A stretch of DNA of 64,000 nucleotides, taken from IMG/VR virus record IMGVR_UViG_3300005530_000004, positions 10,873-74,872 of that record; one strand, given 5' to 3'. Of the stretch, positions 2-63,783 are shown piece by piece (the first letter of the stretch is position 1; the number at the start of each line of letters is the position of its first letter). Source of the DNA: a virus. A program made the position numbers and the translations under genes. The notes below the pieces were generated by a model. The model had not been told where the DNA came from. It saw only the letters and a program-made list of their open reading frames with translations, and searched no databases.

Positions 2-2002
2 CAGCTTAAAGATCGAACAAAGTTCGGTCCTTGGTTTTTTGGTCAAAGAAATTATCATGCAACTGCAATAGCAAGTAGTTTTGCATACGGTAGAATAAGT
101 ATACTGCAAGGGAAGTCGTCTAAAGGAATTTCTCAGTCAGAGTCAACCGCACAAGAATCAATTGCAAAACATTTATCTAGTACAGTATATGTACAATCAG
201 AATCTAATAGTAATTTCTATCTTGCCAATTTACTTTTATTAAAAAGTACGTCGATATGTCAGAGCTTTGCCGGTGGAACTGAAACAGATGTAACTAAAGT
301 GCAGCAATTAAAAGGATCTACTAAATCTTATTCTATATCATTATGCACACCTATATATTATGTAAATTTTGCTAGTGCATTTGTATCACAATCATATTTC
401 TTTGAAAATACAAAATCTAAGGTAGTAAATCTTCAAAGTAAAACAATATCTAACAATAGATTCTTTGCTGCACCGGCTGGACCTTTTGCTAAGCTACTAA
501 AATTAACTAGTATATCAATATGTCAGTCTAAATCATTAGCTGAGATAACTAGAGCATTCAATTTATATTCTACGATTATTTCACAATCTTTAAGTAAGGC
601 ATCTGATTCAATAACCAGAAAGTTGTCCAGTAATATAATTGCTCAAAGTATATCTAAGCCAAATAAAAATCTAAAAATAAACTTAACATCTAATGCTAAT
701 TCTATTTCTAAGTTATCTGCACCAAAAAGTATAAAACAAGGTTTGCACAGCAGATTTTATAGTGAAAGTATTATTGGTGGATCAGGAATAATAACTAGAC
801 CGTTATCTGCTAAATCAAATTCTCAATCATTCCCTAAACAAACTACAACTCTGTCCAAGAAAATAAATATTAATAGTAAAATGGTAAGTCAAAGTATATC
901 TCGTGCTGGAGAAACAGTAACTAGACTAGTCAACGGTGTTGCTGAAAGTATTTCTATTGCTCAAAGATCATTTGGTTCAGTGCATAGATTATTTGTAAGT
1001 AATTCAGTTTCTCCAAGCTTTAGCAAAGCTACTGGCGGGTATATTACAAAGAATATACACTCCTCTATGTATTCACAAGTATTAGTACATGGTAGTGAAA
1101 CAGTTACTAGACCGCTTGCAGCAAAGAGTGCTTCACAAAATCCTTTTCATGGTAATCAATCGGTTCTACTTGAATTAAATAGTAAAGCTGCGGCAGCTAC
1201 AATATCTTCTGGACAAGAGAATATATCTAAGCCTTTAGCTGCAAAAGGTATATCACAGAATCCATTTCATTCTAATCCAAATATATTTAGGCAATTGCAA
1301 GCTAAAGCACAAGCAGAGTCTTTTGCAAAAGCTAATGGTATAAATAAGAAATTAGGGTTAAGTGCTAAATCTATTTCTCAAAGTGAAGCACACACTCAAG
1401 AAATAGTATCTCGTCCATTGGCTTCTAAAATAATTGCTCAAGAATATTCAGATGCAGATATACGTATAGCTAGACATGTTAATAGTGTATCAGTAACTCA
1501 AAGCAATTCTAATGTACAAGAAAAAGTACTTAGACCAATGCAGTCTAAAACTGTTGTACAATCAGTGTCAATTAAAAGCAATCAAACAATAAAAAGATTA
1601 CTTGCTAGTACAACACAAATTGATACACATTCTCTTGCTCAAAATCCAAATAAGAAGATTAATTTACTAACTAAAGCTATTTCTAAATCAGATGCTTCTG
1701 GAAATGAGATAGTAAGTAGAAAGTTATCTTCTAAGAGTGTAGACCAATCTCAATTACATTCAAATGGATTGAACATATTAGTTAATATGTATGGATCAGC
1801 AATATCTACAAGTAGTGCTAGATCTGATTTAATGAATAAGAGAATAGACTTACACTCAGAGATAATTATTCAAAGCTATATTGCTGCGACTGATAATTAT
1901 CTAGGTAATAAGGAATCGGAAGTCACGTTTGCAGAACCGCGAGTAGATCAAGACGCAATTAATCTTGCACCGTTTAATTATGGGACGAATAAGCAGATAT
2001 AA
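2..2002 (+). CDS. Ser/Ala/Lys-rich repeat virion protein, 5'-truncated by window edge
   Basis: Frame of ORF 299..2002 is open back to base 2. Repeated units like RPLAAKSASQ..; similar units end ORF 2788..3945; lies in the virion module. Confidence 0.6.
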   Translation, partial: QLKDRTKFGPWFFGQRNYHATAIASSFAYGRISILQGKSSKGISQSESTAQESIAKHLSSTVYVQSESNSNFYLANLLLLKSTSICQSFAGGTETDVTKVQQLKGSTKSYSISLCTPIYYVNFASAFVSQSYFFENTKSKVVNLQSKTISNNRFFAAPAGPFAKLLKLTSISICQSKSLAEITRAFNLYSTIISQSLSKASDSITRKLSSNIIAQSISKPNKNLKINLTSNANSISKLSAPKSIKQGLHSRFYSESIIGGSGIITRPLSAKSNSQSFPKQTTTLSKKININSKMVSQSISRAGETVTRLVNGVAESISIAQRSFGSVHRLFVSNSVSPSFSKATGGYITKNIHSSMYSQVLVHGSETVTRPLAAKSASQNPFHGNQSVLLELNSKAAAATISSGQENISKPLAAKGISQNPFHSNPNIFRQLQAKAQAESFAKANGINKKLGLSAKSISQSEAHTQEIVSRPLASKIIAQEYSDADIRIARHVNSVSVTQSNSNVQEKVLRPMQSKTVVQSVSIKSNQTIKRLLASTTQIDTHSLAQNPNKKINLLTKAISKSDASGNEIVSRKLSSKSVDQSQLHSNGLNILVNMYGSAISTSSARSDLMNKRIDLHSEIIIQSYIAATDNYLGNKESEVTFAEPRVDQDAINLAPFNYGTNKQI

Positions 2003-2019
2003 GAAACAAGGAAATAGAA

Positions 2020-2382
2020 ATGGCAGTAAATCCTAGACAACAGTTTTGTTTAGATAGTGCAAATAATTATAAGTCATTCGCTGCTAATCTGGAAGCATTA
2101 GTTTTACAAGCTCAAACTTTACAATCTCGTGCATCAAAAGAAGGGGCATCTAATTTACTGCAAAATCAACAAACTGCTCCAATTGGTCCTGATGGCGTTA
2201 TTTCTGCAACTCCTGATGGAACGCCAAATACAGCGCATCCAATTGTGGCATTAGGAATTTCATGGACAGCATATAATGGAATAGATATTGCAATTACCCA
2301 ACTATTAAACTTATGGAATAATCAAGTTGTCGGACAAATTGATATGAAGCAATATTGTCTTGATATTCAAACAGGTAAATAG
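2020..2382 (+). CDS. hypothetical virion-associated protein
   Basis: AAGGA RBS, tightly packed in structural operon. Confidence 0.5.
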   Translation: MAVNPRQQFCLDSANNYKSFAANLEALVLQAQTLQSRASKEGASNLLQNQQTAPIGPDGVISATPDGTPNTAHPIVALGISWTAYNGIDIAITQLLNLWNNQVVGQIDMKQYCLDIQTGK

Positions 2383-2385
2383 TCA

Positions 2386-2775
2386 ATGGGTATAGCACGA
2401 ACATCTGGATTTCTAATAGGTACTAGTAGTACTGTTGGCGATACAATTGCTAATGGTGCTTCTGATACTGGATTAGGTATTGTTGATTTATTAGGTAATG
2501 ATACATCAATAGGTGAAGCAGATTTATATTTATATGCAACATCTACTGTAACTGTTGGTACAATTGATGTTTATTTTAATAAACAACAAGAATCTGGCGG
2601 TACAGTATTAAATGCTACACCCGACTTGCAAATTACACCTATAAATGGAACTGTTAAATACTTTCTTGGACGAATATCTGTAGGAAGATATTTTGGTGCT
2701 AAAATTATTAATAATGCAACAGGTGCATCTTTAACTAATGTTTCTCTTGGATATGATTTGTATAAAGCAAGCTAA
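2386..2775 (+). CDS. beta-rich hypothetical virion protein
   Basis: G/T/V-rich alternating beta-strand pattern, structural context. Confidence 0.5.
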   Translation: MGIARTSGFLIGTSSTVGDTIANGASDTGLGIVDLLGNDTSIGEADLYLYATSTVTVGTIDVYFNKQQESGGTVLNATPDLQITPINGTVKYFLGRISVGRYFGAKIINNATGASLTNVSLGYDLYKAS

Positions 2776-5430: not shown

Positions 5431-7356
5431 ATGAGGAACAAACAATATCATGAAATAGATAAGATAGAACTTCATGGAACAAGAATAGCTGTTCGTACGA
5501 CAAGTAGAATAAGAGCGAAGTTAATAGAAGCATTTAAGCAACATAAGTTTGCTGACATATCCAATGATCTGTTCAATGATATATTTCTACCGTTAATGAC
5601 TGCAAGTCTGCTTGCAGACTTGCGTGGAAGAAAAAGAAGTTTTCTATTCGCGGATACATCATTTAATGCAGGTAAATCAGTATTACCAGAGCTACAACTA
5701 GCATTCGGCAAAAAGGCAAAAAAGACACTTAAGCGAGTAGTTAAATTACCTGTTAAAAAGATAATTAAGAAGGGTATTATAAATGTATCTGTTGAAAATA
5801 TACCAGAAGATGTAACAAGTACTTATAAGAAGGCTAAAAAAATATACAAAGGTGGTAAGAGCTTACATAAAAAAATAAAATCCACACCCATACAAGAAGT
5901 CGGCAAAAAAGCAAAAATAAAGCCAGTACCAGAACGTGTACCAGTAACAAAAAAGAATAAACGACAAAGATTTAAAGAAGTATTAATAGAAGAAAATGAA
6001 AGAGTTAAACAAGAAGTTAAGCAAAAGATAAAGCATGAAAAGAAGTATATCTATGATGAAATAATTCGGCATCTTCGAGTGTTATTAAAAGATGTAGCGG
6101 TAGAAACAGTTAAAGTTGTTAATTGGGAGGAAGTATTAGATAGATTAAATAATGATGAGAGAAATGTTAAAGATATAAAGAATATTTTTAACAGAAAGCA
6201 GGTTACCCGATCTACTGATAAAATAATAACTAAGCTAATAAATAAAGTAGAGAGAAAGATAAGAGATAAAAAAGATCGTGCAAAAGCAGAGATTAAAGAG
6301 AAGATAACTAAAGAGTCATTACGAGCAGGTAAAAAATATGCTGCTCAACCGATTAAAAAATCAATAGGTCAAAAAATATCTGAAAAGATATTTGGTCAAC
6401 CTAGAAGAAGTGGTTCTCATAGACAATATAGAAGTAGTTATTACTATATTGCCAAGACTTTACAAGAGCTAGAAAAAGGTCAACGTAGACGAAGACAATA
6501 CGAAACTGCTAAGCATACATTAAGTGCAATAGGTGGAATAGCTGATTTAATAGGTTTCTTATCTCAGTATAATATACAAGACTTATTTGTATTCTTAACT
6601 GAATTAGGTGGAGCAAAGTTTTTTCCTGAAACATATAAAATTGGTGGTGTAGTAAAAGCAGCTAATTATATAGGTGAAGTAGGAAAGACATTAGAATTTG
6701 TTACGGAAGATGATGAGTTTAATAAAGTAAAAGAATATGAAATTAAACGTGTTCTTCGTTTAATTCAAGAACTACAAACGATAAAGAAGTTATTTACTAA
6801 ATATCATCCGCCAGTTTTTAATATATTAAAGAATGCAAGTCAAAAAACAAATGATAATCTTCGACAAGTAGTAAATGATCTAATATTGCAAGGAACACCG
6901 ATAAAAGAGGGTAGTAAAATATTAGCTGAGGCATTTGCCGCTAATGGTTTATCTATCAAAGAACCTTTTAAAATAGAAACAATATTTAGAACGCAATCCG
7001 CTTTAGCATACTCTGCTGGAAGATGGCAAAGCGATCAACACCCTGCGATACAAGAAATATTATGGGGTTATAGATATGTAACAGTAGGGGATTCTCGTGT
7101 AAGACCAGCACATAGAATACTTGATGGTGTAACTTTACCTAAAGGCTCTGAATTTTGGCTATATTTTTGGCCACCAAATGGTTGGAATTGTAGATGTTCA
7201 GTAATAAGCTTGTTTGAAGAACCAGAAACAGGGATAGTTTTACCACCATCAGACTGGAAAGGACTTGCAGAGATAGACAAAGATTTTACATTTAATTCTG
7301 GTGTTTTGTTTATGGAATCTTCTGCACGTTTCGCTGGTTTACAGACTCAAGTATAA
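5431..7356 (+). CDS. MuF-family minor head protein with long Lys-rich insertion
   Basis: ETIFRTQSALAYSAGRW, YVTVGDSRVRPAH, PPNGWNCRCSV are Phage_Mu_F motifs. Confidence 0.9.
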   Translation: MRNKQYHEIDKIELHGTRIAVRTTSRIRAKLIEAFKQHKFADISNDLFNDIFLPLMTASLLADLRGRKRSFLFADTSFNAGKSVLPELQLAFGKKAKKTLKRVVKLPVKKIIKKGIINVSVENIPEDVTSTYKKAKKIYKGGKSLHKKIKSTPIQEVGKKAKIKPVPERVPVTKKNKRQRFKEVLIEENERVKQEVKQKIKHEKKYIYDEIIRHLRVLLKDVAVETVKVVNWEEVLDRLNNDERNVKDIKNIFNRKQVTRSTDKIITKLINKVERKIRDKKDRAKAEIKEKITKESLRAGKKYAAQPIKKSIGQKISEKIFGQPRRSGSHRQYRSSYYYIAKTLQELEKGQRRRRQYETAKHTLSAIGGIADLIGFLSQYNIQDLFVFLTELGGAKFFPETYKIGGVVKAANYIGEVGKTLEFVTEDDEFNKVKEYEIKRVLRLIQELQTIKKLFTKYHPPVFNILKNASQKTNDNLRQVVNDLILQGTPIKEGSKILAEAFAANGLSIKEPFKIETIFRTQSALAYSAGRWQSDQHPAIQEILWGYRYVTVGDSRVRPAHRILDGVTLPKGSEFWLYFWPPNGWNCRCSVISLFEEPETGIVLPPSDWKGLAEIDKDFTFNSGVLFMESSARFAGLQTQV

Positions 7357-9285: not shown

Positions 9286-10728
9286 ATGGGTGCCATTCTT
9301 GACATTTTTCGTAAGGACGCTTTTAATGTAGTTAATTTAACTGCTGCAATAAATAAGCTTCCTTATAAACCAACTAGAATTACCGACATGGGTTTATTCC
9401 AAGAAAAAGGAATAAACACTACTATGGCGGCTGTTGAAGAACGAGATGGAAAGTTAGGGCTATTAACTTCTCGCGCTCGTGGCGTAATGACAGAAATTAA
9501 TACCATTGGTTTGCGAAAAGTTCGTGCGTTCCAAGTTCCTCATATTCCCATCAATGAATCTGTGCTTGCAGATCAAGTGCAAAATTTACGCGCATTTGGT
9601 TCTGCAAATCAAATGGAAACAGTTGCTACTGCAATTAATGAACGATTGCAAAGCATGAAAGATTGGATTGACACGACAAAAGAATATTATCGTGTTAGTT
9701 CTCTGCAAGGCAATTTGTTGGATGGGGATACTACTACTGTTCTTTTTAATTGGTTCAGTGAATTTGGACTTACTCAAACCAGTTATAATGTAGATTTTAC
9801 TTCGTTTAATTCTTTTACTGCACCTGGAGCATTAACTGCTGCCGATGGTGGTGGTAGCGGCTTATTATCTGCTGGTGCATATACTTATAAAGTAACTTTT
9901 GTTACTAGTGCTGGTGAAACTCAAGCTAGTGTTGCAAGTAACTCTATTACTTTAGCAGCTTCTCACAAAATGACTTTAACGGCAATTCCTGTTGGTCCCG
10001 CAGGGACTTTATATAGGAATCTTTATCGTACTACTGCTGGTGGTTCTAGCTATTTATTCTTGACACAAATTTCAGATAATACTACTGTTGGTTATACTGA
10101 TAATATTGCGGATGCAAGTTTGGGTAGCAATGTTGCACCGACTGTTACTAATATTCCTAGCGCTCGTGATCCATATACTTCTGTAATGGACATGAAAAAG
10201 GATGTAGCAACGAAAATTATTCGAGCAATCGAAGATGCTTTGGGCGTTACAATGTATCGTAGCATTCGAGTTCTTTGTGGAAATGCTTTCTGGGATAATT
10301 TTATTAATCATCCAACCGTTATTCATTCTTATGAACGATGGTTGCAAGCTGGTGATACTGGAACTGGTGGAAGCTTTTTCCGAAATCAACAGCGTCAACA
10401 ATTAAATCGTCAGGGAGATTCTGTTGCTCCTGGTGGTTTTGAATTTGCTGGAATGTATTGGGAAAATTATCGTGGCCATATTGGAACAAATTTCTTTGTT
10501 CCTGATAAGGGTGCAATTGCATTTCCTGAAGGCTGTCCAGATTTATTTATTGAACATATTGCTCCTGCACCGTTTATTGAAACGGTCAATACTATTGGTT
10601 TACCGTATTATGCAAAACAAGAACTTATGCGATTTGGTTTAGGTATTGAATTGCACGCAGAGGCTAATCCTTTGCCTATGTGTACTCGCCCCGGTGCTTT
10701 AATTAAATTAACTCAAACTGCACCGTAA
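9286..10728 (+). CDS. major capsid protein (lambda gpE-like) with ~125-aa inserted beta-sandwich
   Basis: DAFNVVNLTAAINKLPYKP, FQVPHIP, APAPFIETVNTIGLPYYAK, EANPLPMCTRP are Phage_cap_E motifs. Confidence 0.9.
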   Translation: MGAILDIFRKDAFNVVNLTAAINKLPYKPTRITDMGLFQEKGINTTMAAVEERDGKLGLLTSRARGVMTEINTIGLRKVRAFQVPHIPINESVLADQVQNLRAFGSANQMETVATAINERLQSMKDWIDTTKEYYRVSSLQGNLLDGDTTTVLFNWFSEFGLTQTSYNVDFTSFNSFTAPGALTAADGGGSGLLSAGAYTYKVTFVTSAGETQASVASNSITLAASHKMTLTAIPVGPAGTLYRNLYRTTAGGSSYLFLTQISDNTTVGYTDNIADASLGSNVAPTVTNIPSARDPYTSVMDMKKDVATKIIRAIEDALGVTMYRSIRVLCGNAFWDNFINHPTVIHSYERWLQAGDTGTGGSFFRNQQRQQLNRQGDSVAPGGFEFAGMYWENYRGHIGTNFFVPDKGAIAFPEGCPDLFIEHIAPAPFIETVNTIGLPYYAKQELMRFGLGIELHAEANPLPMCTRPGALIKLTQTAP

Positions 10729-10781
10729 TATTTATCTAAGGTTTATTTTGACGGAATGTTTATAAGCAGGCGAGGCGATGG

Positions 10782-10855
10782 GTCGGATATGCGGGTATAT
10801 TAATATAAATTAGTTGGGTCCGATTTATATTAATCCCTGCCCGCATATTCTTTTA
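10782..10855 (+). terminator. long hairpin plus U-tract after capsid gene
   Basis: GGATATGCGGG..ATTAATATAAATT / GATTTATATTAAT..CCCGCATATTC followed by TTTT. Confidence 0.55.
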
Positions 10856-10873
10856 TATAAAGAAAAACTAAAA

Positions 10874-11482
10874 ATGCCAAATAAGACTCCTGAGTTTGAA
10901 TTAAAATTATCAGAAGCATTGCATTTTGATAATAAAGATAAAATGCGAAGAACAATAGTAAAATCTATAAATAACATACGAACAAAAAATGGACTGGCTG
11001 AATTATCTCTATCATTTTTTGAAGAAAGCAAGCATCCTAGAGATCATGGAAAATTTGCTTCAAAAGGTGGAAGTGGCGGTAGTGGAAGTGAAGAAAATAA
11101 TGGTGATGAGGCAACATTTAAAGGTGAAAGTTATAATCGTAAAGAAGTACGTAATAAAATAAAAGAAGGTGATGCTAAAGAAAGATTAAGTAAAATTTTA
11201 ACAGGGGCTAAGTGGGCTGGAATAATTGGTGGTGGCGCTGCTGCTGTTGCTACTGGACACCCAATTATTGCTGCCGCTTTATTTGGATATGGAGCAACTA
11301 AAATTGCTTCTAAAATGGCTGCTGCTGCAACTTATGCAACTGCAAAATATGGTACTAAAACTGTAATAGGTGCTAATATTGCTGCCACAAAAATAACGAC
11401 TGCGCCTAGTAGATTTATTTTAAGAAAAGCTGGACAAGGTATATCTGGTATTGTAGATGCAGTTAGTTCTGAATTTAAATAA
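10874..11482 (+). CDS. putative capsid-internal protein with KHPRD tag and hydrophobic Gly/Ala segment
   Basis: ATG 10874 preferred over the TTG inside the hairpin; ELSLSFFEESKHPRDHGKF. Confidence 0.55.
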   Translation: MPNKTPEFELKLSEALHFDNKDKMRRTIVKSINNIRTKNGLAELSLSFFEESKHPRDHGKFASKGGSGGSGSEENNGDEATFKGESYNRKEVRNKIKEGDAKERLSKILTGAKWAGIIGGGAAAVATGHPIIAAALFGYGATKIASKMAAAATYATAKYGTKTVIGANIAATKITTAPSRFILRKAGQGISGIVDAVSSEFK

Positions 11483-11492
11483 GGATATAACA

Positions 11493-12731
11493 ATGATAGA
11501 TAAACGAATATTGTCCAGAAAAAGATTAACAGAGATATCTTTATCATTTAATAATGATATATCTATCCTTGCTGCTTTTGAAGAAAGTAAACATCCTAGA
11601 GATCATGGAAAATTCACATTTAAAAATGGTGGAAAATCCAGTGGTTCTGGCGGTTCTGGAAGCGTTATAAGTTCTGGAAAAAGTAAAAAGAAAAGAAGTG
11701 TCAGAGAAGTTTCTCAACAAGTTTCTCAACAAGTTTCTCAACCTGTCCAGCAACCCAAACAGCAACCTAAGCAACAACAATCTAAGCACGAATTTAAGGA
11801 GTGGGAAAGCCAAATTCGTGCGGTTAGAAATGAAACAATAGCTCAGCAAGCTAGAGAAGGTGAATATCAACCCGAACATGCTGCAAAATCTTCTTTTGCA
11901 GAACATGCTGCAAAAGAAGCTGGAATAATTTATGGTTTAGGTGCAATAAAAAATGTAGGTAAAAAATTCTTTGGTGGAGCTAATAAGACTAAAGAAATAG
12001 TTACTGCGGAAATTGTTCCAGAATCTGCTGAAACAAGAAAAAAGGCTGTTGCTGCTGCAAAAGCTGCTGCTGGACCTAAATTAAAAAAAGCAAGGAAGCT
12101 TACTAATGCTACAGCTAGAAGTGCAGGAATTAAAAATGCTCAAAAAGCTGCTAATGCTGCATATAAAGCTACAATTAAAGATTTAGCAGGAAAAGTTGGT
12201 GCATCTGCTACAGTAGAAGAAGGTGCTACATTAGCTTCAAAAGCTGTTGGTGGTAGTAGATTAAAAAAGGCTGCTAGTGCAATATTTGGAATTGGAACAT
12301 TAATTCCAAGATTAAGTGTTCCTCATTTAGCTATAGCTACAGCTGTTGCTGCTGCTGGATATTATGGATATAAAAAATATCAACAAAAGCAACGACAGCA
12401 TGAAATAATGCAACATGAACGAGAATTAATGAAGGAAGAATCTGAGTCAGCATATAATTCTGATGATGATAGACAATTTAATAAAGAAGTTAGAGAGAAA
12501 ACAGCTAGAGAAGTTGCTAGACAAGCAAGTGTTTATGCCGCCAAGCAATATTCTCAGCAACAAGTTAGTTATCAAAAACAAGCTATTGATGAAGAATTAA
12601 GTACAGGAAGAGTTCAAAGAAAAATGCGTAGATCGGCACGTATTACTGCTTATGCTGCTGCTAAAGAATACGCAAGACAAGAACGTACTCAAGCATATAA
12701 AACTAGAGAGTCAGATAGTTTTCTATACTAA
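11493..12731 (+). CDS. putative capsid-internal/ejected protein with KHPRD tag
   Basis: AAGGA RBS; EISLSF..AAFEESKHPRDHGKF; Ala/Lys-rich body with TM-like LAIATAVAAAGYYGY. Confidence 0.55.
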   Translation: MIDKRILSRKRLTEISLSFNNDISILAAFEESKHPRDHGKFTFKNGGKSSGSGGSGSVISSGKSKKKRSVREVSQQVSQQVSQPVQQPKQQPKQQQSKHEFKEWESQIRAVRNETIAQQAREGEYQPEHAAKSSFAEHAAKEAGIIYGLGAIKNVGKKFFGGANKTKEIVTAEIVPESAETRKKAVAAAKAAAGPKLKKARKLTNATARSAGIKNAQKAANAAYKATIKDLAGKVGASATVEEGATLASKAVGGSRLKKAASAIFGIGTLIPRLSVPHLAIATAVAAAGYYGYKKYQQKQRQHEIMQHERELMKEESESAYNSDDDRQFNKEVREKTAREVARQASVYAAKQYSQQQVSYQKQAIDEELSTGRVQRKMRRSARITAYAAAKEYARQERTQAYKTRESDSFLY

Positions 12732-12734
12732 TAT

Positions 12735-13286
12735 ATGATAACAGTCACAGTAAAAATAGACCTTAAAAAACTTAAAAAATTTCAAGGTCTATTAAAAAGA
12801 GATTTAAGAGCTGGTGGACAAACTTCTGGTGGTTCACCAATTAATAATGCTTTTAAGCAATGGGGTGTTCGTGTAAGAAGTTATTTACAACAAAGATTTG
12901 TATTATATTCTCGTGGTGGTGGAGATTGGGCACCATTAAAACCATCTACAATTAGAGCTAGAAGAGGTTCCAAAAAAGGTAAACGTAACTCAGTAGCAAT
13001 ATTAAGAGATACTGGAACTTTATATAATGCACTTTCACCAGAATTTACTGGAAAACCTGGTGCGATAGAAGAAAAAATACCTTATGGAGTAAGAATAGGG
13101 TATGGTGGTCCAGGAAGATACACTAATAAATATGGTGGAGTAGCTACCATTGCAGATATTGCTAGTTTTCATCAAGTGGGTGCTGGGTATTTACCAAAAC
13201 GTGAAATTATTGTATTACCAGACGATCATACTTTAGAGTTAATGTCAGAGGATATGTTAAGAGCTTTAGATAAGATGAATAGATAA
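12735..13286 (+). CDS. Mu gpG-like virion morphogenesis/tail completion protein
   Basis: WAPLKPSTIRARR, ILRDTGTL, ASFHQVG..LPKREII. Confidence 0.8.
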   Translation: MITVTVKIDLKKLKKFQGLLKRDLRAGGQTSGGSPINNAFKQWGVRVRSYLQQRFVLYSRGGGDWAPLKPSTIRARRGSKKGKRNSVAILRDTGTLYNALSPEFTGKPGAIEEKIPYGVRIGYGGPGRYTNKYGGVATIADIASFHQVGAGYLPKREIIVLPDDHTLELMSEDMLRALDKMNR

Positions 13287-13843
13287 TGCCACCTACTCCT
13301 GCAAATAACGACGGCTTTATTGTAAATCCATTTACTTTGGTATTTGATGCTCTTTGGAGCATATTAGAAAATTCTCCACAATTTACGGCTGATGTAAAAG
13401 CCGGTAATAGAATACATTTAAATAGGACTAATGATCCTAATGCTTTAAAACCAGAAATACAAGATAGTGATCTTCCAGAAGTAATATTAACATCTGCTGG
13501 TTCAGGAACAATAGGATTATTTGTAACATCATCTACAAGTAAAATAATAAAACGATATCAGTTTTTAATTTCTACTGGAGATCAGAGAGTTCAGAATTAC
13601 TTAAATCAGGTTCAGTTCGACATATTTGCAGCATTCACTGGTTGGCAAGATTTATTGGGGCAATTAATTTGGCCAGTAAATTCCGGTAGAAATTTTGTAA
13701 AGCGTGGAGATTTAGTAGATTGTGAAGAGGGCTTATCTAATTCTGAAAGAAATCGTGGAATAGTTGGCTGGTCATCAATTTGGTCCGCAGAAGTCGAAAT
13801 GCACTTTGCAACAAGTGATTTAAAGGCATATCGTGGTTATTAA
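13286..13843 (+). CDS. probable tail terminator
   Basis: Position between tail completion and tail tube genes; size; SDLPEVIL. Confidence 0.5.
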   Translation: MPPTPANNDGFIVNPFTLVFDALWSILENSPQFTADVKAGNRIHLNRTNDPNALKPEIQDSDLPEVILTSAGSGTIGLFVTSSTSKIIKRYQFLISTGDQRVQNYLNQVQFDIFAAFTGWQDLLGQLIWPVNSGRNFVKRGDLVDCEEGLSNSERNRGIVGWSSIWSAEVEMHFATSDLKAYRGY

Positions 13844-13847
13844 ATAT

Positions 13848-14243
13848 ATGGATATACCTCTATTTGAACATGAAATTTCTTTGGTCTTATCATTTGATGA
13901 AAACAAACACCCAAGAGATAAAGAAGGTAAGTTTAAGACATATTATCACGGATCACCTAATCCAAATATTGAAGTATTAAAAGCTGGTAGCTATGTAACT
14001 AAGCATTTATATATTGCTAAGATAATGGGTATACATAATAAAAGAAACAAAAAAGTTTGGAATGATAAAGATTTAACGAAGCCATATAAATTTGGTAGTA
14101 AAATAAAATTTAAAAGTAAAAATAAATTTTCTGGTAAGCCAATTATTTATAAATTAGAAGTTAAAGATGAAGATATTGATTTTTTAAACAATCCTTTTGA
14201 GCATACAATTAAAGTACCAATTAAAGTTATTAAATTAATCTAA
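13848..14243 (+). CDS. ADP-ribosyltransferase-like protein with KHPRD tag
   Basis: LVLSFDENKHPRDKEGKF then YYHGS..SYVTK..IA..IYKLEV..FEH, the H-G-S / Y-x-T / terminal E pattern of Arr/PARP-like ARTs. Confidence 0.55.
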   Translation: MDIPLFEHEISLVLSFDENKHPRDKEGKFKTYYHGSPNPNIEVLKAGSYVTKHLYIAKIMGIHNKRNKKVWNDKDLTKPYKFGSKIKFKSKNKFSGKPIIYKLEVKDEDIDFLNNPFEHTIKVPIKVIKLI

Positions 14244-14265
14244 GGTAATAGGAGATTGAAAATCT

Positions 14266-15165
14266 ATGGGATATCATTCTGGAAAGTTCGGTGTTATCAA
14301 CAATGTTCCTGCAATGATTAGCTGGAGCATTGAAGATGATTCTGATACAAAAGAAGCTGTTAATTCACAAACTTATTCAATGCCAATGCAGCTTCCCGGT
14401 GTAAATCATTGGTCGGGAAGTATTGAACAAAACGGTGCAAATCCGGTTGCAGGATTAATGCCTGGAGCCATATTTGCATTTCAAGGATATACTGCACCAG
14501 ATAATGATACTGCTTCTGGAACTGGGAGCATATATTCTGGAAATATAATGGTCGAAAGAATGACGTTAGCACTTAATTGGGAAACAGGTGACGTAGAAAA
14601 GATTTCTTATGAATTCCAAGGTGCATTAGGTTTAACTTTTGCTACTGGACAAGCAGCATTAACAGATGTTACTACGCCAAATTATTACGGAACAAAACAA
14701 TTACCTACACCGCAAGTTGCAGTAGCAAATGCAGCTGGAAGTTGGATTCCGGGATCTTTTGTTGCTTGGCCAAATGTTTCGCAATTATCTATATCTATTT
14801 CAAATGAAGTTCAATCAGTAGTCAATTCATCTACTGGTGGAAATACAGATAAAAAAGCTGGTCCTTGGAAAATGGAAGTTACTGCGACTGAGCAAGAAAT
14901 ATTGCGAGCATTATTTGAAAAAGATAATATTCTTCATTTAAAGGTGTTCACTAAGCCGGATTCCTCCCAATTTTGGGACATTAAATGGCTGCACGTAAAG
15001 AATTTTACCGGCATTCAAATTAGCCGTGAAAGCGGAGCTATTATTACTAGAAATGTTAGCTTACCTTTCCAAGCTTACGATAATGAAGCTACTCCAATTT
15101 TAGGTGCAATAACTTTACCTGGCGCCGGTAGTGATTGGTGGCCATCTGTTGCTGGTGGTGCGTAA
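14266..15165 (+). CDS. major tail tube protein
   Basis: GYHSGKFG, SWSIE, HWSGSIE, ISYEFQG; precedes chaperone and TMP; GGAGA RBS. Confidence 0.75.
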   Translation: MGYHSGKFGVINNVPAMISWSIEDDSDTKEAVNSQTYSMPMQLPGVNHWSGSIEQNGANPVAGLMPGAIFAFQGYTAPDNDTASGTGSIYSGNIMVERMTLALNWETGDVEKISYEFQGALGLTFATGQAALTDVTTPNYYGTKQLPTPQVAVANAAGSWIPGSFVAWPNVSQLSISISNEVQSVVNSSTGGNTDKKAGPWKMEVTATEQEILRALFEKDNILHLKVFTKPDSSQFWDIKWLHVKNFTGIQISRESGAIITRNVSLPFQAYDNEATPILGAITLPGAGSDWWPSVAGGA

Positions 15166-15210
15166 TATTTTCACGTATTTCTTTTTCAACCTTTAAGTAG
15201 ATAACTTAAT

Positions 15211-39848: not shown

Positions 39849-39849
39849 C

Positions 39850-40209: not shown

Positions 40210-40214
40210 AATAA

Positions 40215-40916: not shown

Positions 40917-40918
40917 TA

Positions 40919-40975: not shown

Positions 40976-41008
40976 CTGGTTTCTGACACAATAAATGTAA
41001 GGGAGAAG

Positions 41009-43009: not shown

Positions 43010-43032
43010 GGAATATCAGCAGGAATATCAAT

Positions 43033-48432: not shown

Positions 48433-48489
48433 TTAAGATTTAACTGTTTAACTGTTTAACTGTTTAACCACTTTGTAAGGAGATTTGAC

Positions 48490-49203
48490 ATGTTGTATTT
48501 TAAGAAAAATAACGATCTTAGAGTTGTTTTTTCTGATAAGCATTATCGAGGAGAAGCAATTGAAGCTCTGCAAGCTATGTGCAATACCTTACGATCAAAG
48601 TTGGGTACTAGGACTAATTATCCTGTTGTAGATAGCTGTGCAACAGAAATACCCATTATTTTAATTAGAGAGGATGATTTTGAAACTCGAATTCTACTAT
48701 TTGAATTAGGTGTTAGGGTAGATCAAGATGGTAGTAAATATTCTGCGGCACTACTTGAACAAGGGATTAATAAACCTGTAGATAAATCACACCATAATTC
48801 GCTTGCGCAATATGTAAAAGATGCTTGCAGAACTGAGTGTGAATATACCGATGGATTAAAGTCGCGAGTTATAGCAAAAATTGATTTACTTCATGGTGCA
48901 ATTGGACTTTGTACGGAGGTGGGTGAACTGCAAGACCAAGTTAAACGACATATGTTTTATGGTAAACCATTAGATGTTGTAAACATTGAAGAAGAACTTG
49001 GCGATATAATGTGGTTTTGTGCCATAATCTGCAAGTCGCTTGATTTGAGCTTAGATGTAATACTTCAGAAGAATATTGCTAAGCTAAGGGCTAGATATCC
49101 AGAGAAGTTTACGGAAGAAAAAGCAGATATGGCAAACCGTAATTTGAAAGAAGAGAGAAAGGTGCTGGAGAGAGAAAGGTGCTGGAAGACAGGAAGCATG
49201 TAA
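48490..49203 (+). CDS. MazG-like NTP pyrophosphohydrolase with N-terminal extension
   Basis: GLCTEVGELQD, EEELGDIMWF, NIAKLRARYP. Confidence 0.85.
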   Translation: MLYFKKNNDLRVVFSDKHYRGEAIEALQAMCNTLRSKLGTRTNYPVVDSCATEIPIILIREDDFETRILLFELGVRVDQDGSKYSAALLEQGINKPVDKSHHNSLAQYVKDACRTECEYTDGLKSRVIAKIDLLHGAIGLCTEVGELQDQVKRHMFYGKPLDVVNIEEELGDIMWFCAIICKSLDLSLDVILQKNIAKLRARYPEKFTEEKADMANRNLKEERKVLERERCWKTGSM

Positions 49204-52652: not shown

Positions 52653-53189
52653 ATGAACAAAGTAGAGGAATTATATTGCCAATTAAATATTATTCTTTCT
52701 GAATTAAAGAGAGAAGCTTCAAAACTACCTTTCATTGAGTCTGAATTATTTTTAAGTAATTTAAGACTTTATATTTATAATTTAGGTGGTTTTATTTTAC
52801 ACAAAGATGAAGTGTTTATAAAAGTATTGGATTATAAAGAGAAATTTGAATTTGATGAATATCTTATATCTAATTATGGCAAGATATTTGATACTAGGGA
52901 GGGTGTATTATTAAATCTTACAGTTCCAGAGGAACGAAAATATACACTTATAAATTTAAGATATAAGGATAATAAAAAATATAAATTTGCATTAAGGAAA
53001 GTTCATCAATTGGTAGCTTTTAGCTTCATGGATAAATTTGAAGAAATACCTCTTGTAAGACATTTGCATAGTTTAGACGGTGTCAGAGAAAGAAGAAAGA
53101 AGAGAAAAGTAGAGATAAATGAGTTTTGTGAGATTCATTCAGAGGAGAGGTTTATTAAGGATAAGATAAATGAAAAAAGAAAAAATTAA
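52653..53189 (+). CDS. degenerate NUMOD4/HNH-like protein
   Basis: YLISNYGKI, KVHQLVAFSF, VRHL, but no N..NL.W. Confidence 0.55.
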   Translation: MNKVEELYCQLNIILSELKREASKLPFIESELFLSNLRLYIYNLGGFILHKDEVFIKVLDYKEKFEFDEYLISNYGKIFDTREGVLLNLTVPEERKYTLINLRYKDNKKYKFALRKVHQLVAFSFMDKFEEIPLVRHLHSLDGVRERRKKRKVEINEFCEIHSEERFIKDKINEKRKN

Positions 53190-54426
53190 TTGGAGGGAAA
53201 TTTTTGATGGGCGAGAACATTTATTAATAGAAGGTGTTCATTATACAAGAACATTTTCGTTTAGTAAATATATTTATCAAAAGGCTAGAGAGTATAATAT
53301 AAAAGTTAGACAGAAGGTGGCAGTAGATAATAGATCTATATTAGTACAATTAAGGCAAAATGAGCTTGCAGAGATAAAGACTGGTGCTAATAAAATAGTG
53401 AATGCAGAAGTAGTTGCACCATCATTTGTAAATTCTTACGACAAGTATCCATTTGATGAATGGTTTGGCAAGCTAGTTTGTGGTGGACAAAAAGAAGTTG
53501 AAGTAAATAAACTTGATGAATTTGGAAACCCAATTCCTATAATGAGAGAATTTGAAGGTGGGTTCAAAGCTCCAACAGGAAAATATGAAACAGAAAAGAA
53601 GATAGTAAGATTTGAACCTAAATATGTTCTTGAATTAAAATATCCACAGGATTTTACTTGCACTCCAAGGAAGATGGCGGCAATATTTTGTGAGGCTGCT
53701 AAAGCTACAAATTTAGAAGTCTTAGATGTAAATAAAATACATTTTGATTATAGAAAGAAGGATAGGTTAATTATACGAGCTGGACATATTGCAGAAGCAT
53801 ATTTTTCAAGAGAGGAAACACCAGATCAATATAATCTTTGGATAAACTTTAATAAAAACGAAAGAATACCATTACCTAGGTCAAAAGCCGAAGAATGGAT
53901 GGATAAACTATTACATGATGGACAATTGTTACTATATAAAGGTAGAGATTATAGTGGCGATGGATATGATCTTGCAGTATTACTGCGATCTAATTTTCCT
54001 GACATAGATTTTTATCCAAAAGAAGAAGTTGATAATAAAGGAAAAGATGGTACTGGTTGGACAACATTGTTATTAACAGTTAGATTACCGATGTTGGCTA
54101 GAATGCCAAAGGATATGACGCTTAAACAATGGGAAGAAGCCCCAGAAGGTAAAAGATTAGAACAAGAAAGAGATTCATTAAGGTTGGAGTTTAAAAATAA
54201 GAACTTACTTGAAAATATAGGTTATGCTAGACTAGACTATGTTAAACAAATGGAGATGTTTACACATGATTTAAATAGCACTAAAGATGATATTGTTAAA
54301 AATATAATTAAGAAGAAAATACAATCTCTTAGGCAAGACTTTGTTGGGTTGATAGGTGAAGAAGAAGTTAAACAACTTGAACAGTCAGCAGATCAAAAAA
54401 GGATAGGGAGCGATAGTGATGAATAA
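53170..54426 (+). CDS. hypothetical protein with repeated L.(Y/E)(G/P).(H/D)(Y/F) modules
   Basis: LIEGVHY, LKYPQDF, LYKGRDY. Confidence 0.55.
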   Translation: MKKEKINWREIFDGREHLLIEGVHYTRTFSFSKYIYQKAREYNIKVRQKVAVDNRSILVQLRQNELAEIKTGANKIVNAEVVAPSFVNSYDKYPFDEWFGKLVCGGQKEVEVNKLDEFGNPIPIMREFEGGFKAPTGKYETEKKIVRFEPKYVLELKYPQDFTCTPRKMAAIFCEAAKATNLEVLDVNKIHFDYRKKDRLIIRAGHIAEAYFSREETPDQYNLWINFNKNERIPLPRSKAEEWMDKLLHDGQLLLYKGRDYSGDGYDLAVLLRSNFPDIDFYPKEEVDNKGKDGTGWTTLLLTVRLPMLARMPKDMTLKQWEEAPEGKRLEQERDSLRLEFKNKNLLENIGYARLDYVKQMEMFTHDLNSTKDDIVKNIIKKKIQSLRQDFVGLIGEEEVKQLEQSADQKRIGSDSDE

Positions 54427-55462
54427 CTGGTTTAAAGAAGAAAAGTGTGCAGATATAGTTGAAAGTGAAGTTGAAAAGAATGTGTGTAAAAAATATAATA
54501 TTAATTTGAATGAAATTATAAAAAGAGAGCATGAGTATTGGAAGAACAGATGTGTTTTGCAAGAAAGGGGTAGGATACTTGAGAAGTTAAATGCTGCACA
54601 TGGAGATGGTAGATATAATGATGAAATAGATGAGTGTATTGATGAAATAATGGCTTTAGATAAAGTTGAAGGAAAATATAGTGAAGACAATATTAAGCTA
54701 ATAGGCAGCAACACAATTCAATGTTCTCGTCTAGCACGTAGGAGAACTGGTCAAACAAGTATAATGTTTGAAAATCCAGATGGAACATTGTGTTGGATGA
54801 GCTATTCGGAAAGTAAAGCCAGTAAGGAAGAGAAGATTGATTATTACAGTAAGGAATACTTAGCTAAATCTGATGAAATACATAAAGATAGAATTGAAGC
54901 AGCTAAGAAGAAGCAAGAAATGGAAGTTAAGAAGCCTTATGCTGAAAGATTAGAAGATCATGCAAATATTCTTGATAAGGCAAATAGAAGACTAGAAGAT
55001 TCAGAAGAAATAAGTAATTTATTAGATTATTGGAAGATATGTAAGCTTAGTCAGTTGTTTGCAGGAGTAGAAGGAGATACTATAACATGTTTCAAAGCAG
55101 ATCTAAATAAGATAAAGAAGGCAGGTGTGGATAAGGTAAAAGTTGATACAAATGCTGATACAATACTTGTTCCAGATGAATTACAAAGAGTGATGGAAGA
55201 AGTAAATAAATTAAGAAATGATAAACCAAAAGCAAAATATGAAGATGAAGTAAAAGCAAAAAGAGCTAATAATATATGTTCTTGTGGTCGTGGACCAATA
55301 GGATATATTATTCAAAATACTAAACGTGTTTGTTTGAATTGTGCTAAGGAAAGTAAAATTAAAATGAGTTTCAAATGTGCTAAAGGTCCACACATAGTTG
55401 ATAATGCAAAGTATGCAATTATTGGTGATGATAATGAAGTATACTGTGAGGAACATGTATAA
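54416..55462 (+). CDS. hypothetical protein with C-terminal Cys/His clusters
   Basis: CSCG..CLNC, C..H..YCEEH. Confidence 0.55.
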   Translation: MMNNWFKEEKCADIVESEVEKNVCKKYNINLNEIIKREHEYWKNRCVLQERGRILEKLNAAHGDGRYNDEIDECIDEIMALDKVEGKYSEDNIKLIGSNTIQCSRLARRRTGQTSIMFENPDGTLCWMSYSESKASKEEKIDYYSKEYLAKSDEIHKDRIEAAKKKQEMEVKKPYAERLEDHANILDKANRRLEDSEEISNLLDYWKICKLSQLFAGVEGDTITCFKADLNKIKKAGVDKVKVDTNADTILVPDELQRVMEEVNKLRNDKPKAKYEDEVKAKRANNICSCGRGPIGYIIQNTKRVCLNCAKESKIKMSFKCAKGPHIVDNAKYAIIGDDNEVYCEEHV

Positions 55463-56067
55463 TGAAGAGTAGTGATTTTTATTTCTATAGGCATAAAACT
55501 GATAAACATATTGTTGTTGCTCAGTTATGTAGTAACGCTGAAGAATACAGAGTATATGATAAAAATGTATTTTATATGCAGCTTTATGCGGTAAAATCAT
55601 TTATTGACGCATATGAACAAATTGATGGGACACCAGTATATTTTACTTGTAATAAAGATTTTTGGGGTCAAATTGAATTGAAGGCGAAAAGTATGGAGAA
55701 TAAGATGGTAGAGATGATTGAGCACGAAACAGGTGCTAAAAGAAGCTCTGATGCAGATAATGTTCGTTATGATTTAATTACACCAGTTGGATTGCGGCGT
55801 CTTGCAGAAACATATGCTGAGGGGGCAGAAAAGTATGGTACAGATAATTGGAAGAAAGGATTTAAGATAAGTGGTTTAATTAATCATGCAATGAGGCATA
55901 TTGAATTGTATAAAGATAATGATAAATCAGAAGATCATTTGGCCCATGCAGTTTGGAATCTTATGACTGCAATGCACTTTGAAGAAAGAATGAAGAGTAT
56001 GCAGGATGTTCAGGATGTTCAGGATGTTCAGGATGTGCAAAATGACAGTACAAATGACAAAACTTGA
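55462..56067 (+). CDS. dATP/dGTP diphosphohydrolase-like (DUF5664) protein
   Basis: RYDLI, GAEKYG.DNWKKG, HAMRHI, EDHLAHAVWNL. Confidence 0.85.
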   Translation: MKSSDFYFYRHKTDKHIVVAQLCSNAEEYRVYDKNVFYMQLYAVKSFIDAYEQIDGTPVYFTCNKDFWGQIELKAKSMENKMVEMIEHETGAKRSSDADNVRYDLITPVGLRRLAETYAEGAEKYGTDNWKKGFKISGLINHAMRHIELYKDNDKSEDHLAHAVWNLMTAMHFEERMKSMQDVQDVQDVQDVQNDSTNDKT

Positions 56068-62075: not shown

Positions 62076-62114
62076 GTTTTCTTGTTTCTTTGTTCAATCA
62101 AGAAGGTAGATAAA

Positions 62115-62924
62115 ATGTATAGTATGTATCGTGTTAATCAAAAAAATGTTGGGTTAAGTTTATCAGTATTTGGTTTAATTGCATGTTTTTGTTTTGCCTT
62201 AGTATTTGCTGATGATCCTGTTCCTGTTCCTGTTCCTAATCCTGTTGTTGTAGTTCCTGTTGTTGAACAGCCAACTATTTCTATTCCAAAAGAATTACAG
62301 GCAGATGTTGGTGCATTTGTAGAAGTTGCTGCAACTACTAATGGTTCACAAGTAAAATGGATTGTCCTTAATCAACAAGGATTAAATCTATTTCCTATGG
62401 ACTTATTGAAAGATAGTAAAACTGCTGTAGCTGTTGCAGCAAAAGACGGAGTTTATTATCTTCATGCTTGGACTGCATTAAACAATATTCCAAGCGATTT
62501 AGTAACGTGTAAGATTACTATTGGTAATCCAGTTCCTCCAGTTCCTCCAGTTCCTCCAGTTCCTCCAGTTCCTACGCCAACTAAATTATCTGTATTATTT
62601 CTTGAAGAGTCAATGGATTTAGGAACAGCTAATTATAAGCCGTATTTAGAAGCCCTTAATTCTGGAAAAGTGCGAGCATATCTTAATTCGCATACTGCAA
62701 TGGAGAATATTGGGACTATTACCTTACCTTCTTGGCGTAGGTGGGATAAAGATACTGATGTATCGCATGAATCTGCTAAGTGGCAGAGTTTAATTAAGGT
62801 ACATTATGATTCTTTGCCTTGGTTAGTTATTGCTAATGAGGATGGCAGTAAAATATTATCTTCTTCTCCGATCCCTGGAAATGAATCTTCTACATTGGAT
62901 TTGTTGAAGAAATATGGCGGTTAA
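62115..62924 (+). CDS. exported Pro-rich protein (Ig-like domain, PVP linker, alpha/beta domain)
   Basis: Signal/TM segment; PVPVP and PPVPPV tracts. Confidence 0.6.
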   Translation: MYSMYRVNQKNVGLSLSVFGLIACFCFALVFADDPVPVPVPNPVVVVPVVEQPTISIPKELQADVGAFVEVAATTNGSQVKWIVLNQQGLNLFPMDLLKDSKTAVAVAAKDGVYYLHAWTALNNIPSDLVTCKITIGNPVPPVPPVPPVPPVPTPTKLSVLFLEESMDLGTANYKPYLEALNSGKVRAYLNSHTAMENIGTITLPSWRRWDKDTDVSHESAKWQSLIKVHYDSLPWLVIANEDGSKILSSSPIPGNESSTLDLLKKYGG

Positions 62925-62973
62925 TAAATTTCTTTTGTATTAAAACCTAAAGTAAAAATATAAGGTAAATAAC

Positions 62974-63783
62974 ATGGGTTATACTTCTAAACTATATCCT
63001 GGTGAAGTAGTTGTTACTGAGAGTAATGCTTTAGATCATTGTCAACCTATTCAAGGTGGACAACGAAGATTCTTCGGAAGAGTTCCTAGACCAAAAGGTA
63101 TTGAATATTCTTGTGAAAAACCTTTCAGTGATCTAGGAATTGATATTGTTCCAGTAAGTGAATATGATGATCGTATTAAAGAGATGGAAGATACACAAAC
63201 ACGTATCTCCGATTTGCTCTTGCAGAGTAATATTCCATCTTTAGATCAAAATGGAACTAATTATTGTTGGTGCAATGCTGTAACTGGCGCAGTTCAAGCA
63301 ATTCGAGCACAACAAAATCAAGCATTTGTTAAATTATCACCTGCTTCTGTTGCTGCACCATTGAAGAATTATAGTAATCAAGGTGGCTGGGGCGCGGAAG
63401 CATTAGATTATATGGTTGCAAATGGAATTGCAAGCGTAGATCAATGGCCTGCAAATGCTATTTCTAAGCAGTATTATGCTGCTTCTCGTGATAATGCTGC
63501 ACTTCACAAAGTTTCTGAATTTGTGAAGTTAAATAGCAGAGACTTTTCCCAGTTAATGTCTTTGTTATTTGCTAGAATTCCTACTGCAATAGGCTTAAAT
63601 TGGTGGAGTCATGAAGTATTAGCTTGTGATCCAGTTGCATTAGGAAGTGGACAATATGGAGTCCGTTTCCGTAATTCCTGGTCTGATACTTATGGAACAA
63701 AAGGCTTTAATACTTTAACGCAAGCAAAAGCAACTCCTGACGACGCTTGCAGTCCAACAGTAACTATTGCATCGAATAATTAG
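62974..63783 (+). CDS. papain-like (C1) cysteine peptidase
   Basis: DQNGTNYCW (Gln and catalytic Cys), WWSHEV (His), RNSW (Asn). Confidence 0.85.
   Translation: MGYTSKLYPGEVVVTESNALDHCQPIQGGQRRFFGRVPRPKGIEYSCEKPFSDLGIDIVPVSEYDDRIKEMEDTQTRISDLLLQSNIPSLDQNGTNYCWCNAVTGAVQAIRAQQNQAFVKLSPASVAAPLKNYSNQGGWGAEALDYMVANGIASVDQWPANAISKQYYAASRDNAALHKVSEFVKLNSRDFSQLMSLLFARIPTAIGLNWWSHEVLACDPVALGSGQYGVRFRNSWSDTYGTKGFNTLTQAKATPDDACSPTVTIASNN

Follow-up and report, generated by a model that had tools for sequence, protein, structure and literature searches.

The genome of the soil phage analysed here carries an asymmetric heptamer, CTGCAAG (reverse complement CTTGCAG), which is several-fold enriched, independent of coding frame, laid out at random and enriched again in several distantly related phages. 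In the window, i.e. the whole 64,000-nucleotide stretch of DNA under study, an exact search finds 74 copies between positions 104 and 63752 (38 on the + strand and 36 on the − strand), in agreement with the number and positions given in a preliminary description of this DNA. Our tentative reading, held at clearly less than even confidence, is that the word is a selected signature that serves as a Chi-like private mark of self, with a trans-acting enzyme on the phage side as its putative reader.

The complete phage genome (74,772 bp once the 100-bp terminal overlap is removed) contains 86 sites (45+/41−), 12 of which lie upstream of the window in the other 10.9 kb; the density is about one copy per 870 bp. 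Dinucleotide shuffles of the window give 7.1 copies (maximum 12) and Markov models of order 2 and 3 predict 13 and 17, compared to 74 observed. For the whole genome, codon shuffles predict 10.4 copies vs 86, and synonymous-codon shuffles, in which all proteins and the per-gene codon usage are held fixed, yield 15.5 ± 3.4 (maximum 25; z ~20), which places the word ~5.5- to 6-fold above the protein-preserving null. Whichever null model is used, CTGCAAG ranks first among all heptamers. The preliminary description had proposed a selected cis-signal and had named two ways in which the word could prove trivial, namely codon usage and a similar abundance of other NTGCANN heptamers. Counts in codon-preserving shuffles stay far below the observed one, and the proposal comes through both checks because the other NTGCANN words are well below CTGCAAG in abundance. 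As a selected DNA-level signal, the word persists against protein-preserving shuffles and has been built up independently in seven phages.

All seven positions of the word are specific. Its 21 one-base variants occur 0–33 times each in the window, and the only ones that depart from the protein-preserving shuffle are those containing CTGCAG, which are depleted. CTGCAG is avoided separately and is under-represented in all seven CTGCAAG-positive phages. Position +8 prefers C (37 of the 74 window sites), and CTGCAAGC is found 43 times in the genome vs 4.2 expected. No information was found in the flanks past +8.

The layout of the sites is largely featureless. All six frame/orientation classes are occupied, as the preliminary description had noted for the frames, and only two sites are intergenic. 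Spacing averages 1.7 kb per strand and is Poisson-like (gap CV 0.76–1.11, i.e. ~1, vs ~0.95 under the null), with the largest per-strand gaps in this phage reaching about 6.7–10.1 kb. Runs tests in five phages detect no orientation polarity or domain structure (z −0.8 to 1.3). This phage uses 34% of its synonymous opportunities to form CTGCAAG; across four phages the figure is 25–37%, vs 4–17% for control words. Closely facing copies form unstranded inverted pairs in two places, CTGCAAG-tctg-CTTGCAG at 5600–5617 and CTGCAAG-N8-CTTGCAG at 38764–38785. The gap noticed earlier at ~9.7–16.4 kb is present, with no site in either orientation from 9710 to 16389 (major capsid to tape-measure genes), and is marginal under random placement (P = 0.03). 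This stretch offers 16 synonymous opportunities, of which 0–1 are realised (P ~1e-3, uncorrected), and its third codon positions are AT-richer than elsewhere in the genome.

CTGCAAG is also enriched in six other phages (G001, G208, G210, L040, L074 and L077), which are distantly related to the window's phage and share its SNF2/DnaG–MCM/PolA replication module. In the window, the module common to word-bearing phages is encoded on the + strand and opens with an SNF2-family helicase (21851–24061), which is followed by a Pam3_gp32-like small protein (24846–25283), a 215-residue protein with no family assignment (25847–26494), a Pam3_gp34-like protein (26601–27569), a fusion of DnaG (zinc ribbon and Toprim) with an MCM-type helicase (27914–30790) and a Family A DNA polymerase with a 3′–5′ exonuclease (32535–34793). 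The latter was used to collect relatives. The same word is present in seven of the 85 non-redundant phages of the module group. Most relatives have no iterated word, and some carry variants: CAGCGAG (G209) and CTCGAAG (L065) match CTGCAAG at 5 of 7 positions, and CTGCGG of the cultured Bacillus phage BSP7 matches at 4 of 7 when read as CTGCGGA. The CTGCAAG-positive phages vary widely in GC content (0.34–0.53) and Shine-Dalgarno use (0.14–0.53). In genes that they share, the sites occupy non-homologous positions, and therefore each lineage accumulates its own. Of 118 IMG/VR loci chosen because two CTGCAAG copies lie close together, none is word-rich, a result of low power that bounds word-rich contigs in IMG/VR only to a few hundred. 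Taken with the seven of 85, it indicates that the trait is concentrated in this group.

Random placement and orientation, unsaturated opportunities and turnover of sites between lineages are also what a functionless process would produce, in which mutational or biased repair drive (very-short-patch-like) turns near-cognate sequences into CTGCAAG. Such a neutral origin is highly improbable. Drive should deplete the one-base neighbours, but the only depleted ones contain the separately avoided CTGCAG; seven lineages would have had to arrive at one and the same word; and for a drive to be specific at all seven positions, a sequence-specific enzyme would be required in any case, and none is shared.

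Comparisons of trees, residue columns and shared proteins yielded no reader protein for CTGCAAG. When the word is mapped as a label onto the primase-helicase and PolA trees, it requires seven changes for seven rows, equal to shuffled labels. Positives and negatives cannot be told apart by any alignment column in five core proteins (P 0.31–0.81), and no extra protein is common to the CTGCAAG-positive phages, including in phmmer searches of ORFs of at least 35 residues. The preliminary description had also listed a phage DNA-coating or packaging protein as a candidate, but the comparison turned up nothing that only the CTGCAAG phages encode. The SNF2-family helicase, a candidate reader, lacks residues specific to the word. 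The Pam3_gp32-like protein occurs in each of the five larger genomes that carry the word and also in 41 of 78 word-free sequences; it is missing from the word-free G211 and G212.

The preliminary description had suggested the DnaG–MCM fusion, for which the word would be a priming site with Okazaki-like spacing. Lagging-strand primers would then start at the CTG of CTGCAAG, and CTG is the initiation triplet of E. coli DnaG. The fusion protein is present in every phage of the group, primases are the only component of the module known to read short template words, both strands are occupied at the mean spacing given above, and C-N-G-C is retained in the variant words. Known primase recognition sites, however, are 3–5 nt long (5′-CTG for DnaG, 5′-GTC with flanks for T7 gp4) and need no enrichment, whereas CTGCAAG is 7 nt long, is spaced irregularly rather than evenly, with per-strand gaps of up to ~10 kb and no polarity, and uses only one third of its possible sites. 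Nor does it correlate with primase sequence: relatives with a 44–49% identical primase-helicase have no such word, the primase-helicase tree is incongruent with it, and no zinc-ribbon or Toprim residue separates positives from negatives (the best column falls inside the permutation null, P = 0.73). A role in priming is thus very unlikely, and the Okazaki-like claim is not borne out.

The other enzyme suggested earlier is the D12-class N6-adenine DNA methyltransferase (44854–45747, + strand), with CTGCAAG as its target. Neither BLAST nor phmmer detects a homologue of it in the other CTGCAAG phages, and the methyltransferase families PF02086, PF01555 and PF02384 have no match in G208, G210, G001 or G209. 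Highly iterated words of cyanobacteria, such as HIP1 (GCGATCGC), are thought to be methyltransferase-linked. Similar to CTGCAAG, HIP1 is enriched genome-wide on both strands, is frame-independent and has lineage-specific variants, but it is palindromic and belongs to a cellular genome, while CTGCAAG lacks that symmetry and is carried by phages. A link to a methyltransferase does not hold here, since the complete CTGCAAG phage G208 has the word but no member of the three adenine methyltransferase families searched.

In a broader form of this idea, the word would be the motif of the phage's post-replicative DNA modifier, with a 5-hmdU DNA kinase acting in relatives and the D12 enzyme in the window's phage; a genome would become enriched in the motif of its own modifier, an idea put forward for methyltransferase-linked HIP words. 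We consider this quite unlikely. Six of the 85 sequences encode the kinase (PF18723) together with a dUMP hydroxymethylase, and none of these six is without an iterated word. CTGCAAG is the word of G001, G208 and G210 and is borderline in L042, G209 has CAGCGAG and L032 has GCCCCTA; for CTGCAAG alone, Fisher P = 0.006. Hydroxymethylase and MazG genes, but no kinase, are found in the word-free G211 and G212. BSP7 combines its word with a 7-deazaguanine module, and the cultured phage M6 has a moderate word, GAGACGG (36 vs 7.3). Thymidine hypermodification is reported to be sequence-specific, with motifs unknown (PMC5889632). The full pathway, as in M6, ViI, SP10 and PhiW-14, is found in the CTGCAAG-bearing G208, G210 and G001. 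The window's phage, in contrast, has neither a PF18723 match nor a hydroxymethylase; it encodes ThyX and not a ThyA-like enzyme. Since the window's phage has no kinase and G208 no adenine methyltransferase from the families searched, two unrelated enzymes would have to share one heptamer. Furthermore, up to half of the thymidines in M6 and ViI are reported to be modified (PMC8989533), a fraction much too high to be set by a heptamer. In SP10 and PhiW-14 the kinase is present and a word is not, and kinase sequences cluster only weakly by word. There is also no known reason for a genome to enrich its modification sites.

An identical word in unrelated lineages with no specific gene in common would be explained more simply by a reader outside the phage. 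A host-encoded RecBCD, AddAB or mobile defence system could treat CTGCAAG as a Chi-like or protective signal, and phages meeting this enzyme would converge on it. Chi is read by a host enzyme, is enriched and strand-skewed in the host chromosome and accumulates in some lambdoid phages; it is GCTGGTGG in E. coli and 5–7 nt long in AddAB hosts. CTGCAAG resembles it in being a short asymmetric word that runs through coding sequence, is several-fold enriched and would act in trans as a self signal, and its length and asymmetry are like those of known AddAB Chi sites. The occurrence of one heptamer in seven unrelated lineages, with no shared accessory gene and no specificity residues in core proteins, fits a host reader, and the under-representation of CTGCAG in all seven positives hints at a common host restriction pressure. 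Chi-type polarity toward replication or DNA ends is not seen, but a permuted headful genome would not need it, and random orientation fits the headful, circularly permuted genome to which the Mu-F-type head protein and the terminal overlap of this phage point.

The bacterial genomes sampled speak against this explanation, and we regard it as unlikely. None of 502 sampled bacterial genomes (201 Bacteroidota and 301 Pseudomonadota, which may not include the host) is enriched in CTGCAAG beyond composition; the maximum is ~450 per Mb vs 1,150–1,630 per Mb in the phages, and composition accounts for the counts in the two Bacteroidota outliers examined. The BSP7 word differs from the Chi of B. subtilis (AGCGG) and shows no enrichment across the 41 Bacillaceae genomes sampled (≤171 per Mb vs 580 per Mb in the phage). 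The spread of GC content and Shine-Dalgarno use points to diverse hosts, the absence of word-rich members among the 118 pair-ascertained IMG/VR loci indicates that phages in general are without the word, and one- or two-letter variants in relatives suit a diverging phage reader better. DNA uptake sequences (USS/DUS) are set apart by the same lack of host enrichment and by the uninformative flanks past +8.

Nick-associated consensus sequences, found in phages with interrupted genomes (T5 and Pseudomonas phages tf and phiKMV), are likewise short, phage-private and spread over the genome, and the window's phage encodes its own ATP-dependent DNA ligase (43006–44040, + strand). These motifs, however, are few (~4–15 per genome), longer and often confined to one strand, unlike CTGCAAG with its 86 copies distributed over both strands, and a nickase could not be identified in this phage.

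We return to the Chi-like self mark and infer that a phage-side factor reads CTGCAAG. Most likely, one of the phage's own enzymes for replication, recombination or modification would recognise the word or load onto the DNA there, and by Chi-like logic the word would tell a tracking enzyme that the DNA is phage DNA. Selection would then act on copy number and not on place, orientation or frame. The trait belongs to a subset of the large phage group defined by the SNF2/gp32-like/gp34-like/DnaG–MCM/PolA module. A wider version is doubtful: the module group, including BSP7, may mark its DNA with private 6–7-nt self words, and an as yet undescribed phage system would read them and discriminate self from host, with the words (CTGCAAG, CAGCGAG, CTCGAAG and CTGCGG) diversifying like a specificity code and coupled in many members to post-replicative hypermodification.

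Cultured phages with analogous words, BSP7 (CTGCGG) and M6 (GAGACGG), provide practical handles. All kinase-bearing relatives carry a word and therefore supply explicit candidate motifs against which to test the sequence selectivity of thymidine hypermodification. In metagenomes, the word may also be useful for recognising or binning these phages. Genome-wide iterated words such as Chi, uptake sequences, KOPS and HIP1 have each led to the discovery of a machine that tracks DNA. A phage-private word that recurs in unrelated lineages and shifts by one or two letters among relatives implies a reader not yet described, and such a reader would be relevant to the way in which phages label DNA as their own.

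The heptamer CTGCAAG and its reverse complement CTTGCAG (together, the word) occur 74 times in the window, 38 times on the plus strand and 36 times on the minus strand, compared to 7.1 copies in dinucleotide shuffles. These exact counts agree with the number and the strand balance given in the preliminary description. The whole genome contains 86 copies. The preliminary description had proposed a codon-preserving shuffle as a check, and the observed count lies far above this null: synonymous shuffling within each gene, which leaves the proteins and the per-gene codon usage unchanged, yields 15.5 ± 3.4 copies per genome (maximum 25), and a codon shuffle yields 10.4, which rules out a codon or dipeptide artefact. 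The word ranks first among all heptamers, and the next ranks are occupied by its own overlapping fragments. Its one-base variants have 0–33 copies each in the window, and under a protein-preserving null only those that contain CTGCAG deviate. As had been noticed earlier, all reading frames are used: the sites fill all six frame/orientation classes and encode many different peptides. The flanks are uninformative except for a preference for C at position +8, and a longer repeat or mobile element is ruled out. Nothing relevant came from searching the literature for the motif string or for words that are over-represented in phages. The enrichment of CTGCAAG is a strong and genuine signal that coding does not explain.

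The two ends of the 74,872-bp contig from which the 64-kb window is taken share a 100-bp overlap, and the phage genome is therefore complete. The phage is tailed: it has a tape-measure gene, its capsid is of the lambda-E type and one head protein is of the Mu-F type. Almost all of its genes are on the plus strand. Other products include an SNF2 helicase, a DnaG-MCM primase-helicase, a family A polymerase (PolA), an ATP-dependent ligase, ThyX, MazG, a D12 adenine methyltransferase and a protein with a MazZ-like pyrophosphohydrolase domain. PHROGs and Pfam searches with about 40 ORFs found no nickase, DpdA or second methyltransferase. The phage has no close relatives among GenBank or deposited phages, and alignment of its PolA against named bacterial assemblies gave no match; Logan holds PolA relatives at 60–75% identity. 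The phage DNA is present in rhizosphere and soil metagenome runs. The same strain is present in read sets X3 and X4; those named X5 and X6 contain relatives diverged by 3–7%. The strain comparison gave about 510 differences in all; among the 40 listed, none lies in a word site.

Several other features of the window deserve description. Positions 47584–49203 and 55462–56067 encode ThyX, a MazG-like pyrophosphatase and a PF18909 protein (dATP/dGTP diphosphohydrolase N-terminal domain, MazZ-like), which are adjoined by two large ORFans (53170–54426 and 54416–55462). This group may function in non-canonical nucleotide metabolism. A PurZ-like match was looked for and not found, and a protein atlas search with the 348-residue product of 54416–55462 gave no lead. 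The major capsid protein (Phage_cap_E, 9286–10728) is interrupted by an insertion of about 140 residues, a domain that matches PHROGs of the esterase/lipase-like and internal-virion-protein type. The sequence GATGAAGATG and overlapping words, with 22–28 copies on the coding (plus) strand only, are probably Asp/Glu-rich coding repeats. A GC-rich element with about five copies contains words such as CCAGGGAGCG and GCGTCGTCCAGGG; its copies are probably located in the region at about 36000–41000, where the GC content is 0.43 compared to 0.34 elsewhere.

In this phage and three others, the coefficient of variation of gap lengths is near 1, as under random placement, and the order of plus and minus sites passes a runs test. 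About 34% of the synonymous opportunities to spell the word are used in this phage, compared to 4–15% for control words. The word-free gap noted in the preliminary description is present as a stretch of 6.7 kb that covers capsid and tail genes. It offers few opportunities (16), its third positions are more AT-rich, and its significance is only marginal. The layout of the sites suggests that only the number of copies is under pressure. A neutral drive towards the word is considered highly improbable.

Relatives were collected as 137 loci around PolA relatives in IMG/VR and JGI metagenomes, with several whole records added later. CTGCAAG ranks first or near the top among heptamers in G001 (56 copies in 34 kb), G210 (52 in 52.9 kb), the complete genome G208 (49 in 61.7 kb) and L040/G002 (18 in 15 kb), and its enrichment is significant in L074 and L077. 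The CTGCAAG phages have a GC content of 0.34–0.53 and come from different samples. Other relatives carry variants. The high-GC 72-kb record G209 (loci L304–L307) has 106 copies of CAGCGAG/CTCGCTG (42 plus, 64 minus; 20 expected), a word identical to CTGCAAG at five of seven positions, and L065 has CTCGAAG on both strands (14 vs. 1.7 expected). Significant both-strand words are also found in L004 (TATGCCA, 33 vs. 4.7), L032 (GCCCCTA, 12 vs. 0.8) and L061 (GGTGACA, 32 vs. 7.5). The cultured Bacillus subtilis phage BSP7 (MH707430), which carries the same primase-helicase and a QueC/D/E-FolE 7-deazaguanine module, is enriched on both strands in CTGCGG/CCGCAG (50 vs. 10.8) and in its extended form TCCGCAG (29 vs. 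3.5). Most relatives have no iterated word. In shared genes, most word sites occupy codons that are not homologous, and where sites do coincide, some are oppositely oriented; therefore, each lineage wrote the word in separately. None of 118 IMG/VR loci chosen for two close copies of CTGCAAG is word-rich, so that by this low-power test phages in general lack the enrichment. The trait thus recurs in seven phages or more within a single replication-module group, with one or two letters differing in relatives.

The preliminary description had proposed, among other candidates, the product of 44854–45747, an adenine methyltransferase, or that of 27914–30790, the primase-helicase, as the protein that recognizes the word. 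None of the other CTGCAAG phages encodes a counterpart of the methyltransferase, and G208, whose genome is complete, lacks adenine methyltransferases of the three main families. The seven CTGCAAG phages require seven changes of the word label on both the primase-helicase tree (67 rows) and the PolA tree (80 rows), equal to shuffled labels, and well-supported branches force at least six. Alignments of the primase-helicase, PolA, SNF2, gp34-like protein and ligase have no columns that separate positives from negatives beyond the permutation null. BLAST clustering, and phmmer with ORFs down to 35 residues, found no protein common to the positives beyond the core module (SNF2 helicase, Pam3_gp32-like, Pam3_gp34-like, primase-helicase and PolA), which is also present in word-free relatives. 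The tree, column and gene-content results therefore do not support the methyltransferase and primase readings, and a primase site is very unlikely. Two candidate correlates were rejected: the Pam3_gp32-like family occurs in 71 loci, many of them word-free, and the likeness of a 229-residue protein (36348–37037) to one in G208 is limited to a short widespread motif.

Alternatively, the word could be read by the host, as Chi is. Named bacterial genomes were obtained through a universal 16S pattern, and CTGCAAG was counted in two phyla, with 201 Bacteroidota and 301 Pseudomonadota. Its density is typically 100–200 per Mb and reaches about 450, compared to 1,150–1,630 per Mb in the phages. Composition accounts for the density in the two Bacteroidota outliers that were examined, and strand runs in the listed bacterial positions were taken as a listing artefact and not as strand skew. 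The word of BSP7, CTGCGG, differs from the Chi of its host B. subtilis, AGCGG, of which BSP7 has only 26 copies in 50 kb; in 41 Bacillaceae the BSP7 word reaches at most 171 per Mb, compared to 580 per Mb in BSP7. Shine–Dalgarno use varies between 0.14 and 0.53 among the CTGCAAG phages, a spread suggestive of diverse hosts. A host-side Chi-like reader is unlikely.

The word could also be a motif for DNA modification. Post-replicative hypermodification of thymidine begins with the 5-hmdU DNA kinase (PF18723); Pseudomonas phage M6 is a model for its 5-NedU form. The kinase is found in six of 85 non-redundant phage sequences of the module group, and all six have an iterated word, which is borderline in L042; the word-free relatives G211 and G212 lack the kinase but do have the nucleotide-level genes. 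G208 encodes the complete pathway (L295, 2512–19916): a MazG-like protein, a ThyA-like putative dUMP hydroxymethylase, a nucleotide kinase, a dCMP deaminase, the 5-hmdU DNA kinase, a flap endonuclease and a radical-SAM/SPASM enzyme. However, both the kinase and the hydroxymethylase are missing from the window's phage, and kinases from phages with the same word cluster only weakly. Among cultured kinase phages, a comparable word is found only in M6 (L320–L322; GAGACGG/CCGTCTC on both strands, moderately enriched, 36 vs. 7.3; core CGTCTC, 67 vs. 20); ViI has a weak word, and SP10 and PhiW-14 have none. Thymidine hypermodification is sequence-specific, with motifs that are unknown (PMC5889632). 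PMC8989533 puts the modified fraction in M6 and ViI at up to half of thymidines, which on that figure is too high for a heptamer to specify. Such a role for the word is thus distinctly doubtful, more so than one for a host reader.

The related hexamer CTGCAG (PstI/BsuBI site) occurs twice (20534 and 38980) compared to 21.5 expected from the protein-preserving shuffle; of CTGCAGG, for which 7.9 copies are expected, there is none. The observed/expected ratio of CTGCAG is at most 0.45 in all seven CTGCAAG phages, and the site is under-represented in about one third of word-free relatives as well. This avoidance is a restriction-avoidance signal separate from the enrichment of CTGCAAG: as its by-product, the word could reach at most about 8–20 copies, and other CTGCAAN words have no comparable rise. 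A very strong avoidance of another site, GATC, is seen in G210, with two sites in 52.9 kb compared to 158–480 in its relatives.

The reading that we favour, tentatively and at less than even confidence, is that the word may serve as a self mark used by a phage-side reader. BSP7, with its related word, is an analogue open to experiment.
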